DNA of 64,000 nt. Source: Ostreococcus lucimarinus (Eukaryota). The notes beneath the pieces were generated by a model. The model had not been told where the DNA came from. It searched no databases and was given only the letters and a program-made list of their open reading frames with translations. The stretch lies in assembly GCA_000092065.1 (NCBI GenBank), contig CP000591.1. The stretch is one strand, 5' to 3'. The position numbers and the translations under genes are program-made. Shown here piece by piece: positions 4,644-11,292 of the stretch. Within the stretch, counting starts at the first letter, position 1. Every line of letters begins with the position of its first letter.

Positions 4644-5223
4644 CTAGTTGGCGAGCACTTCGCCCGTTTTCTTCAACACGCGAACCTTCTTGCCTCCCTC
4701 TTCCTTCGTGCCGATGCGCGACCGGACGGACTTCGCCTCGCTGTAGTGCATCACGTTGGAGTGATGAATCGGGAACTCACGCTGAATAATTTGTCCCGTC
4801 TCGCCTTCGCCGCGCGGCTTGACGTGCTTCGTCTTCACGTTAACATCCTTGCAGAGCACCTCCCCGGTCTTGGTGAAGACTTCCACCACGTTCGTCACCT
4901 TGCCTTTATCCGCCCCCGCGATGACGACGACCTTGTCGTTCGTCTTCACGTGCATCGGGATGCGCACCGGAAGTCCACGCGGCGTGAGCGCTTGCTTTTC
5001 CCACTTCTTCTTCGCCACGATTTCCATGCCGCTTCGGCGCGCCGCGGGCACCGGGCTCGAGACCTACGTCGTTCGCGTCGTGCGCGTCTGTCAGTCGTCG
5101 CTCGGGGGTGCTGATTCTAGCCTCAATCGCTTTTCCACCCTTCTCACGTCTCGCACGCGTCCCGCGCGCCACCGCACTGGACGCGTCGACGCGATTAATA
5201 CGCATCCACCGCGTACTCGTCAC
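4644..5223 (-). CDS. RPL24: Chloroplast-type 50S ribosomal protein L24 (uL24c). The mature part is 4644-5009. A putative transit-peptide exon at 5068-5223 would be joined through a 58-nt intron at 5010-5067.
   Basis: KKWEKQALTPRGLPVRIPMHVKTNDKVVVIAGADKGKVTNVVEV...KTKHVKPRGEGETGQII...IHHSNVMHYS...GKKVRVLKKTGEVL matches the plastid L24 KOW protein. The upstream ORF in another frame ends ...DAHDAND followed by GTAGGT, and the AG before AAGAAGTGG restores the frame. Alternatively the protein is unspliced from an internal ATG (MEIVAKKKW). Confidence 0.75.
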
Positions 5224-5612: not shown

Positions 5613-6530
5613 TCAGGTGACGCGAACGATGAAATCGCACAGCGGGGCGAGTTGATTTTTCATCGCGCTGACGCGGTCGCACACGACGCCCGGGCGTCTC
5701 GAGGCTTTGGTAAAGGCGTCGAACGTGAACGTTTCCCCGGGTCTTTGACAGAGCGTACGGTACTTGTCGCGCTTTTTCTTTGCCACGGCGTTCGCGCGGC
5801 GCTGAGCGGCGGTGATTGCCATTTCGGGGAGGGAGCCGGCGTCGGCGGCGCGCGCCGCGTCGATTTCTCGTTCCAGACGTTTTCGAATGAAATCCGGTGG
5901 GTGCGCCGTGAGCTTCTCGCACTTGTTGCACGCGATCATGAGTGGGATCTTGCGCGTTTGAAACGATTCGTCGCTCAGGATGTCGAACAGGAACTTGGCG
6001 ACTTCCTTGCGTTCGCTCGCGAAGGACACGCTGTCCACGACGAAGACGACGGCGCGCGCCCGCGCCAACTCTCGCAGCGCTTCCTTGCGCAGCTTGGCGT
6101 GTCCTGGAACGTCCACGACGCGCACGTGCGACTTTGTCACCTCTCGCCCTCGGCTATTCTTCCCGACGACGACCGCGTCGCCGCACTCGTTCGCCTCGAC
6201 GCTCGTCGTCGTCCTGAAACGCTGCTCTCCGTACTTCAACCCCTGCCACAGCGCCGTCTTCCCGCAACCTTTACCGCCGAGCAGCAACACCGCGGGTTTA
6301 TACGTCTTCGAACGCGAGCCCGGACCGCTCGCGAGGGCGGCGAAGGCGCCACCGACGCCGAAAACGACGCGGAAAGCGACGACGATGGCCAGGAGCGTGA
6401 CGATCGCGACGAGCGCGTGCGCGGCGTTGGCGTCGTCGACGGCCAAACGGTGCGAGAGGACATCTCGCGCAAACGTGTGTGAGGTGTTGTACGCGTCGAC
6501 GGCGCGCGCGGTGAGGGCGGCGACGTCCAT
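5613..6530 (-). CDS. SRPRB: Signal recognition particle receptor beta subunit (Arf-like GTPase with an N-terminal transmembrane anchor)
   Basis: N-terminal hydrophobic segment ALVAIVTLLAIVVAF, then a P-loop LLLGGKGCGKTAL, DVPGH, NKCE. ATG at 6530. Confidence 0.75.
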   Translation of the reverse strand: MDVAALTARAVDAYNTSHTFARDVLSHRLAVDDANAAHALVAIVTLLAIVVAFRVVFGVGGAFAALASGPGSRSKTYKPAVLLLGGKGCGKTALWQGLKYGEQRFRTTTSVEANECGDAVVVGKNSRGREVTKSHVRVVDVPGHAKLRKEALRELARARAVVFVVDSVSFASERKEVAKFLFDILSDESFQTRKIPLMIACNKCEKLTAHPPDFIRKRLEREIDAARAADAGSLPEMAITAAQRRANAVAKKKRDKYRTLCQRPGETFTFDAFTKASRRPGVVCDRVSAMKNQLAPLCDFIVRVT

Positions 6531-6617
6531 GGGGCGTTGTGCGGGACGAAGCGCGAGACGACTGGCGACGGGCGAAACCGAACCGGCGAGCTAGCGGTGG
6601 GTACTAATACAACGCGC

Positions 6618-8825
6618 TCAGGACGCGTTCAGGATGGACTGTCGAAGTTGCGAAATCACCTGCGCGGGATTGGCGGCGCCGAAGACGGCGCTGCCGGCGA
6701 CGAGGACGTTGGCGCCGGCGCGCGCGCAGAGCTCGGCGGTGCTCGGATTGACGCCGCCGTCCATTTGAATGTCCAAGTCTGGATACCTCGCGCGGAGGGC
6801 GGAGACTTTGTCACACACCGCGGGGTTGAACTTTTGACCACCGAACCCGGGTTCGACGGACAAGCACAGGACCATGTCGACGAGACCGGCGTCGACGAGC
6901 TCGTACACGCCGCCGTCTTCGTCGCACGGCGTGGACGGTTTGCACGCCACGGCGGCGCGCATGCCGAGCGATCGAATGGTTTTGCAGAGCTCCTCTGCGG
7001 CGGTACCGCTGACAACTTCGATATGGAACGTCACGCTCGACGCACCGGCGGCGGCGAGCGCGGGAACGAGCGTCGCAGGATTGCTCACGCTCAAGTGACA
7101 ATCGAAGAACGCGTCGCGCGGGCCGACGCGTTTCGCCAAATCCGCCACCACGGGAGGACCGATGGTCAAATTAGGGACGAAATGTCCGTCCATGATGTCG
7201 ACGTGCAACCAATCAGCGCCTTCGTCGAGCATGCGGTTGACTTCGGAGGCTAAAGCGCCTTGGTCGGCCGCCAACAGTGACGGGCAAACGATGGCGCGTT
7301 TGGTCGTCGAAACCGCGGGCGCTCGGCGCGCGCCCCACGTCTCGCGGAATGACGGATATAGTCGTAGGTACGCGGCGTACACGTCGGCATACGCTGCGTG
7401 TGCCTCTGGGTTCGGACTGATGACGCGCGATTTGCGAACCATCGCCGCGACGGCTTCGCGCACGCTTCCAAACAACCCCGCGCCGAAGGCGGCGAGTATT
7501 GCGCAACCGAGCGCGGGGGCGTCCGAACACTCGGTGACGACATGCGGCACTCCCGTGACGTCGGCGTGAATCTGTAACCAAAGTTCGCTTCGCGTCGCCC
7601 CGCCGGCGATGACGACTTCCTTCGGTTCGTACCCTCCGCGGGTCATGGTTTCAAAAATCAATCGCGTACCGCAACACACGCCCTCCAAAATCGCACGGAA
7701 CACGTGCGCTTTCGAGTGCTTGAGCGTGAGACCGGAGATCACTCCGCGGCTGAGTGCGTCCACGTGCGGGGTTCGGTTGCCTTGAAAGTGGTCGAGCGCG
7801 ACGACGCCTTCGCATCCAGGCGGGATCGCGCTCGCTTCGCGGTTCATGTCGTCGTAAAACGAATCGCCGCCGCCGCATAAATTCTTAAACCAATTCACCA
7901 CGGACCCCGTGCTCGTCTGACCACCCTCGACGACGAACGGCGCGCTCTCCACGAGCGCGTTTCTATACGTCCCGAAGATACCCTTCGCGTGAAATTCCTC
8001 CTCCGCGACGCCCAAGTGCAGGTGCGACGAGCCCGTGATCAGCGCTAACTGCCCCGGTTCGATGACTCCCAGCCCGACCATTCCCACGAACGCGTCCGCG
8101 CCTCCCTGAATCACCTTCGTGCCCTCGAGCAACCCGCACGCCGCCGCCGCTCGTGCCGTCATCCCGCCCACCGCCGCGCCCATCGGTAATATCTCCTTCG
8201 GCCACTTTTCCACCAACTCCGCGCACCCAAGCTTTTCTAACATCGTCATCGGCGGTCTCCCGTCGCCGTCGAAGTGCCACCGCACGCCGACGTTGTTCAT
8301 CGACCCGCAGTACCGTCCCGTGAGCCACAGGTTTACGTAATCCTGATACTCGCAAATCATCGTCGCTCTGTCGTACCGCTCCCGGTCGTTTCGCTTCAGC
8401 CACAGCGCCTTGGGCACCATCCACTCCGCGCTCACCGGTCCCGCGCCCGCGCAGTTGACGCGAAGCGCGTCGTCTTCCGTCTCGACGCACGCCGTCGCCT
8501 CGTCGCTCGCGCGGACGTCCATCCACAGCACGCTGTTCCCGATCGCGTCGCCGCGCGCGTCGAGCGCGACGACCGAGCAGCACGTCGTGTCGACGCACAC
8601 GGCCGCGACGTCGCGCGCGTCGACGCCGCACAGGCGCCGCGCCTCGGCGATGGCGGTCGCGAGCCCGTCGAGCCACGACGCGGGGACTTGCTCGGCGCGA
8701 CCGGGCGCGGGGTGCGAGGTGGCGTACGGGACGTCGGCGAACGCGAGCGGGACGCCGGTGAGGGTGAAGACACCGGCGCGGATGCCGGTGGTGCCGCCGT
8801 CGACGCCGACGACGACGGGAGGCAT
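6618..8825 (-). CDS. Bifunctional protein: N-terminal FGGY-family pentulose (ribulo/xylulo) kinase fused to C-terminal ribulose-phosphate 3-epimerase
   Basis: N-terminal FGGY signatures VGVDGGTTGIRAGVF, LWMDVRA and GGQTSTGS...NWF. The C-terminal 220 aa, IVCPSLLAAD...HVDIMDGHFVPNLTIGP...FHIE...LSVEPGFGGQKF...DIQMDGGVN...GANVLVAGSAVF, is a complete RPE. One uninterrupted ORF of 735 codons with ATG at 8825. Confidence 0.8.
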   Translation of the reverse strand: MPPVVVGVDGGTTGIRAGVFTLTGVPLAFADVPYATSHPAPGRAEQVPASWLDGLATAIAEARRLCGVDARDVAAVCVDTTCCSVVALDARGDAIGNSVLWMDVRASDEATACVETEDDALRVNCAGAGPVSAEWMVPKALWLKRNDRERYDRATMICEYQDYVNLWLTGRYCGSMNNVGVRWHFDGDGRPPMTMLEKLGCAELVEKWPKEILPMGAAVGGMTARAAAACGLLEGTKVIQGGADAFVGMVGLGVIEPGQLALITGSSHLHLGVAEEEFHAKGIFGTYRNALVESAPFVVEGGQTSTGSVVNWFKNLCGGGDSFYDDMNREASAIPPGCEGVVALDHFQGNRTPHVDALSRGVISGLTLKHSKAHVFRAILEGVCCGTRLIFETMTRGGYEPKEVVIAGGATRSELWLQIHADVTGVPHVVTECSDAPALGCAILAAFGAGLFGSVREAVAAMVRKSRVISPNPEAHAAYADVYAAYLRLYPSFRETWGARRAPAVSTTKRAIVCPSLLAADQGALASEVNRMLDEGADWLHVDIMDGHFVPNLTIGPPVVADLAKRVGPRDAFFDCHLSVSNPATLVPALAAAGASSVTFHIEVVSGTAAEELCKTIRSLGMRAAVACKPSTPCDEDGGVYELVDAGLVDMVLCLSVEPGFGGQKFNPAVCDKVSALRARYPDLDIQMDGGVNPSTAELCARAGANVLVAGSAVFGAANPAQVISQLRQSILNAS

Positions 8826-8889
8826 GACGAGGGGGAGGCGCGCGAGGCGCGTTGAGCGGCGAGCGGCGAACGGCGACGACGCCGCGAAG

Positions 8890-11292
8890 TTACAAATCGT
8901 CGTCGGAATCGATCCAAGGCGGACGCGGGACGACGAGGGGATTGGGTTCGGGCGCGGCGTTCGGTTTGGCGGTGACGTGGACGTATCGGGAGAGTAAAGC
9001 GCCGCGGAGGATGTCGTCGTCGGCGACGGCGGCGGCGGCGGCGGCGCTCGGCGGTTCGGGGGCGTCGGCGAGGTCTGCGCGCGACGTCGGGTCGAACGAG
9101 CGTTCGGAGTCCGTCATCGCGATGATACTCGGCGGTATGGGAGCGTTTGTGAGGTCCTCGCTCGAGGCGGCGGCGGCGGCGGCGAGCCGACGCGCGCGAA
9201 GCGTCGCGGAGCCCAAGCGTCGATGGGACCTTTCCGACGCGGTTTCGCTCGTCGTGTCGCTCGTCGTCTTGAACTTTCGCCTAGGTTTCACGGACACGGC
9301 CTCAGAGGCTTCGGAATCGGAGTCGCCGCGCGTTGGTGACGGTGGATTCTTCGCGCGCGGCGCGGAAGCGCGAAGTCGCGGATTCTCGTTCGCCCGTCGC
9401 CACGCGTCTTCGAGTTCTTTTTGTTTGTCAGCCAGATCCATCAAGTCCAGGTTCAGCGTTCGGCTGATCTCTCGGATCTCCGTCGAGAGCGTATCCATGC
9501 GCTTCAGCAGGTCGTCGTCTGCGCCACTCGTCGTCGCGATGATGGATGCAATTTCTCTTCTCACCGCCTCTCTCGTCGCCGCCTCTTTCGTCGCCGCGTG
9601 CTCGATGTCTTCCTCCCATTTTTGCTCACGAACGTCGATAGCGAACTGGAGCTTGGCGAACTGTGCGTTCACTGACGCCATCTCACCTTTCGCTGCATCT
9701 AAGAGCTGCTGCGCCTCCTCGCACGTGATGGCGGTGTCGAGTTTTGCAAGGTGCGCGTCCGCGTCTACGGCGGCGGCGCGGTCGGCTTTCAGCTGTTCAA
9801 TTTCTTTCTCGAGCGCGACGACGTGCGCATCGTACGCACGCTTACTCGACTCCATGTGCTCGTTCAATCGATCCATCTCTTCGATCGCCTTCGACTCTAC
9901 GAACCGCACGCGCTCCGACGCCTTAGTGGCGAGCGACGCGTACTCTTCGCCGAATTTGTTCAACGCCTGTTCCATGCGCTCGATGACTTTACTCTTTTTT
10001 CGCCCGCTCGAACGTTCGGCTTCGAGCGCTTTTACGACTAACCGTAAATGTCTCGGCGCAGCATCGCGCTCGTGCGCGCGTAGCTCCGTCTCCGCGCCGA
10101 CTTCTAGACAGCCGAATGCGGCGAACGCGCACGGCTTGCTCGCCCCGACGCAAAAGAATTCTTGGTGGGCGTCAAACGCTCTCGTACGCACCATGGCGCG
10201 GCATCGAGGACAAGGCCGTCTAGACTCTTCACACTTCACCGCGTGTATCGATGCGTGCATTGCGTTAACCACGGCATCGCAGCTCGGACAGTGCCACGGG
10301 CGAAAGTCGCAATCTGTCCTGTGTGAGTCGATGGCGTCACGCTCGCATCCGTACAAGCAGCCGTTGCCGTCCTCGTGCTGCAAGTTAATAAATCCACACT
10401 TGATGTACTCCCGAGGGCAGATCTCACGGTGTTCGGCGAGCTCACGTCGTTTACCATCCCACTCGCACTCGTTCGGGCATTTCACGAGCGCGCTCGGGCA
10501 CGTCAACGCGTGCTGCGTCATCTTACAAAACGGCACAACGTCTTCGCAACCCTTGACGTCGCACTTCACCGACCGCCACGCGCATTCACTCACGTGACTC
10601 ACGTAGGCAATCTTCGTCACGATCGCGCCGCAGTAATCCCTCCCCTTTCGCGCCTCGTTCGCCTCGCACTCCACGCGCGAGTCGTACGGATACCAACATC
10701 GTCTCGGCACGAAGGCGCACTCGCGATCGTGCACGTCTCGTAAACGCAACCGAATACCGCTCTCACCGCACCCATCCGCCTTCCAGCACCACTCACTCGC
10801 GCCCTGCGCGTTTCGCTTCAACACCATCGCGCGTCTGCACAGCACGGGCAACGACTGAATCGCATCCTCGACCTCGGCGTCCTCCGCGAGCGCGTCCTCC
10901 GCGTCCTCCCTCGGCGCGCACTTCGCGCAATACGTCGTCCCGTTCTCCGCCACCACGGGCGACAGCATCACGTCTCGACACTGCGGACACACCAAGCTCG
11001 CGTGCGGAAACCCCACGAAAACCGTCGGCGCGTGTTCGAGCGCGTCGTCCTCCGCGGCTTCCTCCGCGTCGTCGCCGCGCGTCGCCGCCGTCGAATCCTC
11101 GCCCGCGGTCTCCATCCTCCCCGACGTCATCGCCGCCCCTCCGCGCGCGTCGACGCCATCCAGCGTCGCGCCCGCGTCGCGCCGCGCCCGTCCGAGCGCG
11201 CCGCGCGCCGTCCACGGCGTCGCGCGGTTCGTTGACATCCAAAAATCCGTTCCATTGCCTCGCGCGTCCCGAAGCCTCACGAGCCCGCCCAT
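8890..11292 (-). CDS. TRAF-type zinc-finger protein with a long coiled-coil and an S/R/A-rich C-terminus
   Basis: Cys/His clusters CPQCRDVMLSPVV..YCAKC, CPNECEWDGKRRELAEHREICPREYIKC and HRTDCDFRPWHCPSCDAVVNAMHASIHAVKCEE. Then a heptad-rich region (LEKEIEQLKADRAAAVDADAHLAKLD...). ATG at 11292. Confidence 0.6.
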   Translation of the reverse strand: MGGLVRLRDARGNGTDFWMSTNRATPWTARGALGRARRDAGATLDGVDARGGAAMTSGRMETAGEDSTAATRGDDAEEAAEDDALEHAPTVFVGFPHASLVCPQCRDVMLSPVVAENGTTYCAKCAPREDAEDALAEDAEVEDAIQSLPVLCRRAMVLKRNAQGASEWCWKADGCGESGIRLRLRDVHDRECAFVPRRCWYPYDSRVECEANEARKGRDYCGAIVTKIAYVSHVSECAWRSVKCDVKGCEDVVPFCKMTQHALTCPSALVKCPNECEWDGKRRELAEHREICPREYIKCGFINLQHEDGNGCLYGCERDAIDSHRTDCDFRPWHCPSCDAVVNAMHASIHAVKCEESRRPCPRCRAMVRTRAFDAHQEFFCVGASKPCAFAAFGCLEVGAETELRAHERDAAPRHLRLVVKALEAERSSGRKKSKVIERMEQALNKFGEEYASLATKASERVRFVESKAIEEMDRLNEHMESSKRAYDAHVVALEKEIEQLKADRAAAVDADAHLAKLDTAITCEEAQQLLDAAKGEMASVNAQFAKLQFAIDVREQKWEEDIEHAATKEAATREAVRREIASIIATTSGADDDLLKRMDTLSTEIREISRTLNLDLMDLADKQKELEDAWRRANENPRLRASAPRAKNPPSPTRGDSDSEASEAVSVKPRRKFKTTSDTTSETASERSHRRLGSATLRARRLAAAAAASSEDLTNAPIPPSIIAMTDSERSFDPTSRADLADAPEPPSAAAAAAVADDDILRGALLSRYVHVTAKPNAAPEPNPLVVPRPPWIDSDDDL

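Follow-up and report, generated by a model that had tools for sequence, protein, structure and literature searches.

A conserved fusion of an FGGY-family kinase with ribulose-phosphate 3-epimerase, predicted to be bifunctional, in the green alga Ostreococcus lucimarinus

Pentulose kinases of the FGGY family and ribulose-phosphate 3-epimerases (RPEs) are both textbook enzymes. In the L-arabinose pathway, the product of the L-ribulokinase AraB, L-ribulose 5-phosphate, is taken by the 4-epimerase AraD and not by RPE, and AraB is not known from fusions with RPE. The human FGGY enzyme and its orthologue in yeast have been identified as D-ribulokinases, as cited in PMC5714238. Enzymes of this FGGY/Ydr109c family, which is represented among structures by the Yersinia proteins 3gg4 and 3l0q, are standalone proteins without an RPE. 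On the epimerase side, the metal and catalytic tetrad of CrRPE1 comprises His72, Asp74, His105 and Asp216, and its conserved methionines Met76, Met107 and Met178 stabilise the 2,3-enediolate. Chlamydomonas reinhardtii RPE2 (Cre02.g116450) is a predicted cytosolic RPE paralogue (bioRxiv 10.1101/2022.09.29.510120). Here we analysed a window of 64,000 nucleotides from Ostreococcus lucimarinus (contig CP000591.1 of assembly GCA_000092065.1), in which a gene on the minus strand joins the two families in one polypeptide, both halves being atypical versions of the textbook enzymes. The gene and its modules are as follows.

6618..8825, minus strand: FGGY kinase-RPE fusion gene, an uninterrupted single-exon open reading frame (ORF) of 735 residues with its stop codon at 6618-6620
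8073..8813, minus strand: FGGY_N (PF00370, residues 5-251), 93.3 bits
8094-8096, minus strand: predicted catalytic base D244, just upstream of FGGY_C
7482..8045, minus strand: FGGY_C (PF02782, residues 261-448), 132 bits
7293..7346, minus strand: inter-module linker, approximately residues 494-511, placed from the alignment and the AlphaFold2 model
6621..7298, minus strand: RPE-family (beta/alpha)8 module, residues 510-735, 196.9 bits to PF00834

A sequence-only reading of this stretch had described a 735-codon ORF encoding a kinase followed directly by an epimerase, and our analysis bears this out: FGGY_N (E 2.3e-26), FGGY_C (E 3.1e-38) and Ribul_P_3_epim (residues 513-715, E 3.1e-58) lie in one frame, all three far above the Pfam gathering cutoffs of 28.8, 27 and 21.1 bits for PF00370, PF02782 and PF00834, respectively. 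The epimerase motifs quoted in that reading are likewise present, as HVDIMDGHFVPN, VEPGFGGQ and IQMDGGV. According to the ORF listing, the frame starts with ATG, and there is no in-frame ATG, GTG or TTG between this codon and the preceding stop. The GC content at third codon positions was 0.82 in the kinase part and 0.78 in the RPE part, compared with 0.75-0.82 in neighbouring genes, which indicates that the gene is native rather than chimeric. The identical 735-residue protein was also found on metagenome contigs with the same neighbours. We conclude that this is a genuine, conserved, nucleus-encoded enzyme of O. lucimarinus, predicted to be bifunctional. The competing idea that two adjacent genes were mis-joined by assembly or read-through, or that the locus is a pseudogene, is effectively refuted by the uninterrupted frame, by the recurrence of the same ORF on independent metagenome contigs, by its native codon composition, by a 90% cluster of 169 members, by full-length homologues of 44-78% identity in many genomes and transcriptomes and by the strong purifying selection on the catalytic residues. 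Nothing positive was found in its favour, the closest being that, among 40 of the 169 cluster members, the exact 735-residue product came only from metagenome and ENA sources, with no NCBI or UniRef accession, whereas the adjacent SRP-receptor protein has such O. lucimarinus accessions.

We then considered how widely the architecture is distributed. The sequence-only reading had treated it as one not known from a characterised enzyme, and indeed we found no paper characterising a kinase-RPE fusion in the literature searched and no chain covering both halves in PDB sequence and structure comparisons. The architecture itself is neither rare nor unrecorded. Among 5.8 billion proteins searched, all three Pfam domains occurred together in more than 100 clusters, with identities from 100% down to 44%; full-length homologues of the Ostreococcus fusion were present at 100% and at 71-78% identity. 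The JGI pipeline names such proteins, including the 735-residue Ostreococcus form, "ribulokinase/ribulose-phosphate 3-epimerase", and other automatic names for members are inconsistent ("carbohydrate kinase", "glycerol kinase", "ribulose-phosphate 3-epimerase"). The fused architecture is therefore already public and automatically named, and the gene itself is no discovery. The same reading had proposed checking for the fusion in other Mamiellophyceae against separate genes elsewhere; the fusion occurs in Mamiellophyceae and also in Trebouxiophyceae, Chlorophyceae, Pedinophyceae and Pyramimonadophyceae, as well as in the stramenopile Tribonema. Named carriers include Chlorella, Micractinium, Parachlorella, Nannochloris, Tetradesmus, Scenedesmus, Monoraphidium, Raphidocelis, Chlamydomonas species, Volvox, Pleodorina, Tetrabaena, Haematococcus, Dunaliella, Sanguina, Cymbomonas and a pedinophyte. 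The domain order was kinase then RPE in every fusion, including ten further long representatives recovered by an exhaustive search of 1.84 billion proteins. Transcriptome-derived MMETSP/CAMPEP proteins flagged "type:complete" (P0029, P0049, P0067 and P0118) hold all three domains, so that a single mRNA is on record for other algae but not for Ostreococcus. Among prokaryotes, a genome scan seeded with a standalone relative, which was not meant to be exhaustive, returned only kinases of about 500 residues and no full-length fusion, and a tblastn search of bacterial loci with the RPE half matched only an adjacent gene in one of them (L005).

Two observations on the edges of the family may be recorded here. 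In Tribonema minus (Xanthophyceae, P0053, NCBI JKP88DRAFT_258094), the fusion is 48% identical and is nested among chlorophytes in a rough neighbour-joining (NJ) tree; it may have been gained by gene transfer from a green alga. Three metagenome homologues, P0224 (885 residues), P0228 (1275 residues) and P0244 (1429 residues), have N-terminal extensions of about 90 residues or much longer bodies. The added sequence may be a targeting peptide of other algal lineages or a further domain, or may stem from an erroneous gene model.

As for function, the account that we favour, and judge reasonably probable, is that of a cytosolic pentulose kinase and 3-epimerase returning free pentulose to the pentose-phosphate pool as xylulose 5-phosphate (Xu5P). 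Which sugar is used, which way the flux runs, where the enzyme resides and what physiological role it plays are inferences on our part. The kinase module (residues 1 to about 493) would phosphorylate the terminal hydroxyl of a free 2-ketopentose at the expense of ATP, with D-ribulose as the most parsimonious substrate, and the epimerase module (residues about 510-735) would invert C3 through a metal-stabilised enediolate, interconverting ribulose 5-phosphate (Ru5P) and Xu5P. Dephosphorylation of pentose phosphates and oxidation of pentitols are possible sources of free pentulose, and the Xu5P produced would rejoin the pentose phosphates of the cytosol. D-ribulose is favoured because its product, Ru5P, is the substrate of RPE in the flux direction of the oxidative pentose-phosphate pathway (PPP), and because Xu5P rather than Ru5P is the substrate of transketolase. 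The plant plastid Xu5P/phosphate translocator, which carries Xu5P and not Ru5P, points the same way.

The class of the kinase half was examined against the curated NCBIfam models, with the following scores.

Ribulokinase PRK04123 (NF003154): 275.3 bits, cutoff 428; the best-scoring model
XylB (TIGR01312): 256.6 bits, cutoff 380.25
L-ribulokinase (TIGR01234): 226.6 bits, cutoff 583.25
Pentulose kinase of the human FGGY/yeast Ydr109c type (TIGR01315): 212 bits, cutoff 408.7, the match being in two stretches
LsrK: 166 bits, cutoff 528
GntK: 146.6 bits, cutoff 648.55
XylB (NF011601): 132 bits, cutoff 912
GlpK: 121.9 bits, cutoff 590.35

The assignment to a ribulokinase/xylulokinase class thus stands as far as a pentulose-kinase-like FGGY protein is concerned, but not as membership of AraB, XylB or the TIGR01315 family, all of whose curated cutoffs it misses. 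Since every curated equivalog cutoff was missed, "ribulokinase" is a nearest-neighbour label for this half. The likeness to the human D-ribulokinase, which the sequence-only reading had invoked, is one of resemblance and not of orthology. The algal kinase shares with the FGGY/Ydr109c family its pentulose-kinase-type FGGY character, the Lys/Arg-Trp and E-G-G-Q pocket elements and the proposed role, salvage of free D-ribulose; it differs from that family in carrying an RPE and in falling into a separate NJ clade. Identity as a glycerol kinase or gluconokinase, which had been named as an outcome that would weaken the pathway logic, was ruled out by the GlpK and GntK hidden Markov model scores.

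In FGGY_N, the phosphate loop reads D9-G-G-T12-T, and C82, W101 and R182-W183-H184 belong to the sugar pocket; in FGGY_C, the sugar loop is E300-G-G-Q-T-S and the ATP loop G408-G409, and the stretch Q348-G-N-R-T-P is also present. In an alignment of 48 fusion proteins, R182, E300 and the following G-G-Q were invariant, D244 was conserved in 47, and D9-G-G-T12-T, Q348-G-N-R-T-P and G408-G409 were invariant or nearly so. In the Bacillus halodurans AraB structure 3qdk, L-ribulose is bound by Ala96 (through its main chain), Lys208, Asp274 and Glu329 (PMC4880283). These align with C82, R182, D244 and E300 of the fusion, the Asp and Glu being identical and the Lys replaced by Arg. The same Lys/Arg and Glu elements occur in the D-ribulokinase-type 3gg4, and they are absent from XylB 5vm1 and 3ifr, which makes the kinase half ribulokinase-like. 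The AlphaFold2 model of the fusion, with a mean predicted local distance difference test (pLDDT) score of 91.2, was closest by Foldseek to the Yersinia FGGY-type structures 3l0q/3gg4, which ranked at the top, and to 3qdk, an L-ribulokinase; XylB, GntK, LsrK and GlpK ranked lower. AraB 3qdk shares the two-domain FGGY fold (E 4e-41, TMt 0.82), but its identity to the algal kinase is only 26-27%. Judged by sequence, the pocket residues give no distinction between D- and L-ribulose and would also be compatible with xylulose.

This compatibility bears on a rather unlikely alternative, in which a D-xylulokinase takes the place of the D-ribulokinase. Free D-xylulose, from xylitol, arabitol or xylose for example, would be phosphorylated to Xu5P, and some of this would be turned by the RPE module into Ru5P, which then yields ribose 5-phosphate via ribose-5-phosphate isomerase (RPI) and balances the pentose-phosphate pool. 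The XylB model came close to the ribulokinase model in score (256.6 and 275.3 bits), several bacterial relatives of the kinase are named "xylulose kinase" in databases, and Zn-dependent polyol dehydrogenases, which could produce xylulose, lie beside relatives in loci L004 and L008. However, the pocket resembles those of AraB and the Yersinia FGGY type, with R182 and E300-GGQ absent from XylB 5vm1, the structural ranking places 3l0q/3gg4/3qdk above 2itm/5vm1, and the database names are automatic. Moreover, Xu5P is already a transketolase substrate, which would make a fused epimerase less obviously useful.

Turning to the epimerase half, we found it to be of the cytosolic type. It scored 185.8 bits against NCBIfam NF004076, above the cutoff of 165. 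Its match to the rice cytosolic RPE 1h1y was 242 bits at 55.6% identity, and its identity to human 3ovp was 48.3%, whereas it matched the potato chloroplast RPE 1rpx at 147 bits and the cyanobacterial enzyme at 155 bits. By these comparisons it derives from the eukaryotic cytosolic isoform, whose rice and human representatives it resembles in length, TIM-barrel secondary structure, catalytic tetrad, GFGGQ and DGG loops and lack of a transit peptide; it differs in being attached to a kinase of 500 residues and in two substitutions in the active site. The tetrad, H541, D543, H577 and D689, was invariant in 48 of 48 fusions, and the phosphate loops GFGGQ, DGG and GS together with S516/L518 are canonical. 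Taken with the kinase landmarks, this shows that the catalytic residues of both halves are intact. C. reinhardtii RPE2 belongs in this comparison, as C. schloesseri and Edaphochlamys, both closely related to C. reinhardtii, carry the fusion; no mention of a kinase domain in RPE2, or of a test of the protein, was found in the literature.

The epimerase had been called complete, and this holds for the tetrad and the motifs; the module is not fully canonical, however, since only one of the three conserved methionines is kept (M545), the others being replaced by S579 and L655. Among the 48 fusions, the first position was F in 26, M in 12, C in 7, V in 2 and T in 1; the middle position was S in 16, A in 15, C in 13, V in 3 and I in 1, and never Met; the third was L in 39 and M in 9. 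All seven reference RPE structures with a displayed alignment (rice, human, Toxoplasma, S. pyogenes, potato, 7sbj and 7u5y) have Met at all three positions. The change in the triad may reflect altered specificity or lower efficiency, or it may be neutral.

As relatives of the kinase half outside the fusions, the exhaustive search returned standalone proteins of about 500 residues at 40-47% identity, far nearer than the characterised FGGY kinases and likewise below all curated cutoffs. By genome scan and tblastn, identities to the algal kinase were 47-49% in Alphaproteobacteria, 42-43% in Luteococcus, 40% in Spirochaetota and 36% in Pseudoramibacter. NCBI names the bacterial members merely "FGGY-family carbohydrate kinase", those of Spirochaetota and KSB3 being named "ribulokinase/xylulose kinase". 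The NJ tree, which lacks support values and was used for its coarse grouping alone, placed all fusion kinases with the alphaproteobacterial set, apart from 3qdk, 3gg4, 5vm1 and 3ifr. Alphaproteobacterial members carry the full pocket signature of the fusions (R-W-H, QGGADA, S..H, G.Y, EGGQTS and QGNRTP). Their genomic contexts included the following.

L005:4715-5383, L034:4351-5004, L036:4226-4930 (minus strand) and L040:2123-2818: kinase-linked RPE genes, the middle Met being replaced in all four
L006:4001-9482, L007:4283-9470, L032:4173-10491 and L033:4594-10491: SorC/AcoABC/kinase operons
L035:4513-9425 and L037:3985-8781: a similar E1alpha/E1beta/lipoyl and kinase arrangement, in KSB3 and one other genome

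In Spirochaetota, L005 and L034 show a 4-bp overlap between the RPE-family gene and the start of the kinase gene, L036 has the two genes in divergent orientation 70 bp apart, and in L040 they are separated by 1.2 kb. The L005 neighbour exceeds the curated RPE subfamily cutoff with a score close to that of the algal module (185.3 and 185.8 bits). This adjacency offers independent gene-level evidence that the kinase product would be the substrate of the epimerase. The bacterial kinases are thus like the algal module in identity (36-49%) and clade, some being translationally coupled to an RPE gene lacking the middle Met. They differ in being separate polypeptides, in the order RPE then kinase where the two are linked, and in that many are linked to AcoABC-like modules with thiamine pyrophosphate (TPP) and lipoyl components, to SorC regulators or to BtpA/M29 genes like those of the sgc cluster. 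The association of these kinases with RPE-family or acetoin-dehydrogenase-like TPP genes, and the loss of the middle Met in kinase-linked RPEs, are the new observations of this work. No classical ribitol, arabitol or arabinose operon was seen among the bacterial kinase contexts examined.

The conserved operon SorC-type regulator/AcoA/AcoB/AcoC/kinase occurs in four marine alphaproteobacterial genera, Oceaniradius and Histidinibacterium among them, and the E2 component of the Aco-type operon exceeds the AcoC equivalog cutoff. Such linkage hints at a different or additional kinase substrate; we speculate that the TPP enzyme might cleave a pentulose 5-phosphate or a 1-deoxy-pentulose 5-phosphate. 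These contexts, together with the methionine triad, keep in view an alternative that we regard as unlikely: a kinase and 3-epimerase for a non-canonical ketose, such as a 1-deoxy-pentulose (for example, 1-deoxy-D-xylulose), another methyl-ketone sugar or a hexulose. The loss of the middle Met is the main reason why this alternative stays alive. None of the 48 algal fusions retains that residue, nor does any of the four bacterial linked genes (which have A, A, E and A instead; the full triads read C/A/L, C/A/L, M/E/M and A/A/L), whereas the seven reference structures, and CrRPE1 in the literature, are M/M/M. With identity between the bacterial linked RPEs and the algal module as low as 25-33%, the change looks convergent. 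In addition, kinases with the same pocket sit inside AcoABC operons in the four alphaproteobacterial genera, with Aco-like genes in KSB3 and one other genome, and AcoAB cleaves alpha-hydroxy methyl ketones. Against this, the RPE half lies above a curated subfamily cutoff and is otherwise very near bona fide cytosolic RPE, its tetrad, phosphate loops and S516/L518 are canonical, and linkage to Aco genes would fit cleavage of Xu5P itself just as well. Put more broadly, and with similarly low probability, the algal fusion and the split bacterial pairs might constitute an unrecognised module, an "RWH / EGGQTS" kinase with a methionine-poor RPE, dedicated to a non-classical ketose. A 1-deoxy-pentulose is a candidate substrate, either salvaged towards 1-deoxy-D-xylulose 5-phosphate or, in bacteria, cleaved in an AcoABC-like reaction to acetyl-CoA and glyceraldehyde 3-phosphate.

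A further set of spirochaete relatives was observed with BtpA-family, peptidase-M29 and DeoR genes (L005:1319-6933, L039:1026-5539, L040:91-5539 and L041:813-5208), and some of these loci also contain ureidoglycolate-lyase-like and cupin genes. We take this grouping to be reminiscent of the E. coli sgc cluster.

Returning to pentulose salvage by the algal enzyme, the sequence-only reading had further supposed a channelled entry of pentulose into a pool shared with the Calvin cycle, and neither part of this found support. In the AlphaFold2 model the two modules are confident, but linker residues 499-509 have pLDDT <50 and are predicted to be disordered, and the predicted template modelling (pTM) score of the whole model is 0.71. 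In the alignment, the Ostreococcus linker is the shortest of the family, other algae having up to about 60 variable, low-complexity residues, and neither length nor sequence is conserved across fusions. A disordered and variable linker gives no support for a fixed interface or tunnel, and leaves proximity and obligatory 1:1 expression as the advantages; any kinetic gain from the short flexible tether would thus come through proximity and 1:1 stoichiometry, not through a tunnel. Entry to the Calvin pool is doubtful as well. There is no N-terminal extension, the protein beginning at FGGY_N model position 2, and no in-frame ATG upstream. Given this and the cytosolic type of the RPE half, a cytosolic location would be parsimonious, and direct feeding of the Calvin cycle would not.

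The same linker raises the question of whether the fusion is a mere convenience of co-expression, with the C-terminal module serving as the housekeeping cytosolic RPE of the oxidative PPP and the kinase acting in an unrelated pathway. A flexible linker without geometric coupling would allow this, the sequence of the RPE half marks it as an orthologue of the cytosolic RPEs of plants and animals, and the Chlamydomonas literature treats RPE2 simply as a cytosolic PPP epimerase. We nonetheless consider it improbable, as the fusion and its domain order have been kept over very deep algal divergences, bacteria independently place kinase and RPE genes side by side with overlapping start and stop, and the lining of the epimerase active site has changed in concert with kinase linkage.

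Several observations weigh against the salvage of D-ribulose to Xu5P in the cytosol. The kinase half is under every curated cutoff in NCBIfam, and the RPE half falls just below the rpe equivalog TIGR01163 (198.8 against 212.6 bits) and has lost two of the three enediolate-stabilising methionines (M545/S579/L655). The nearest bacterial relatives, at 47-49% identity and with the same pocket, are found in the SorC/AcoABC operon and not in ribitol or arabinose operons. D-xylulose could also serve as the substrate, the localisation follows solely from the missing N-terminal extension, and the activity of every member of the family is predicted from sequence.

If the proposed function is correct, green algae would have a dedicated cytosolic route from free pentulose to the pentose-phosphate pool, a salvage that is performed in animals and yeast by an unrelated FGGY clade. 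The "cytosolic RPE" of Chlorophyta in the Chlamydomonas literature would then be a bifunctional enzyme, which would be relevant to models of algal carbon flux, and the fusion would provide a functional anchor for a large FGGY subfamily that is abundant in marine Alphaproteobacteria and Spirochaetota. Should the module instead act on a non-canonical ketose, the fused domain would be a Rosetta stone for assigning function to that kinase clade. The concerted loss of the triad in kinase-linked RPEs poses a testable question about enediolate stabilisation or new specificity. Having no intron and the shortest linker of the family, the Ostreococcus gene would make a convenient expression construct.

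The surroundings of the gene within the window, from ORF coordinates, are listed below.

5613..6530, minus strand: downstream gene for signal recognition particle (SRP) receptor beta, its product identical to XP_001420432.1 of O. lucimarinus CCE9901, which places the window in that genome or in a near-identical strain
6531..6617, minus strand: spacer of 87 bp between the fusion stop codon and the SRP-receptor beta gene
8826..8889, minus strand: intergenic spacer of 64 bp between the upstream gene and the fusion ATG
8890..11292, minus strand: upstream TRAF/Sina zinc-finger gene of 800 residues, with weak TRAF-type and Sina-type zinc-finger matches

The preceding gene had been placed 65 bp away; the spacing is indeed tight, at 64 bp, and reflects the ordinary compactness of the Ostreococcus genome. 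The promoter and 5' untranslated region of the fusion gene must lie inside this spacer. Other neighbours in the window are plastid L24, a CER1-like protein and CDC73. Operon-like linkage of the fusion gene was rejected, since the flanking genes are functionally unrelated, and no second FGGY or RPE copy was found within the window. In the upstream 800-residue protein, the C-terminal half is long, charged and probably coiled-coil. The reference model of the L24 neighbour (4644-5051) has 127 residues compared with 135 in the ORF, and the reference annotation of the fusion/L24 locus may contain different gene models. Long antisense or off-frame ORFs of up to 581 residues overlap the real genes (6537-7253, 8274-8855 and 8852-10597, all on the plus strand, and others); their low-complexity translations, rich in Arg, Ala and Ser, are typical artefacts of high-GC sequence.

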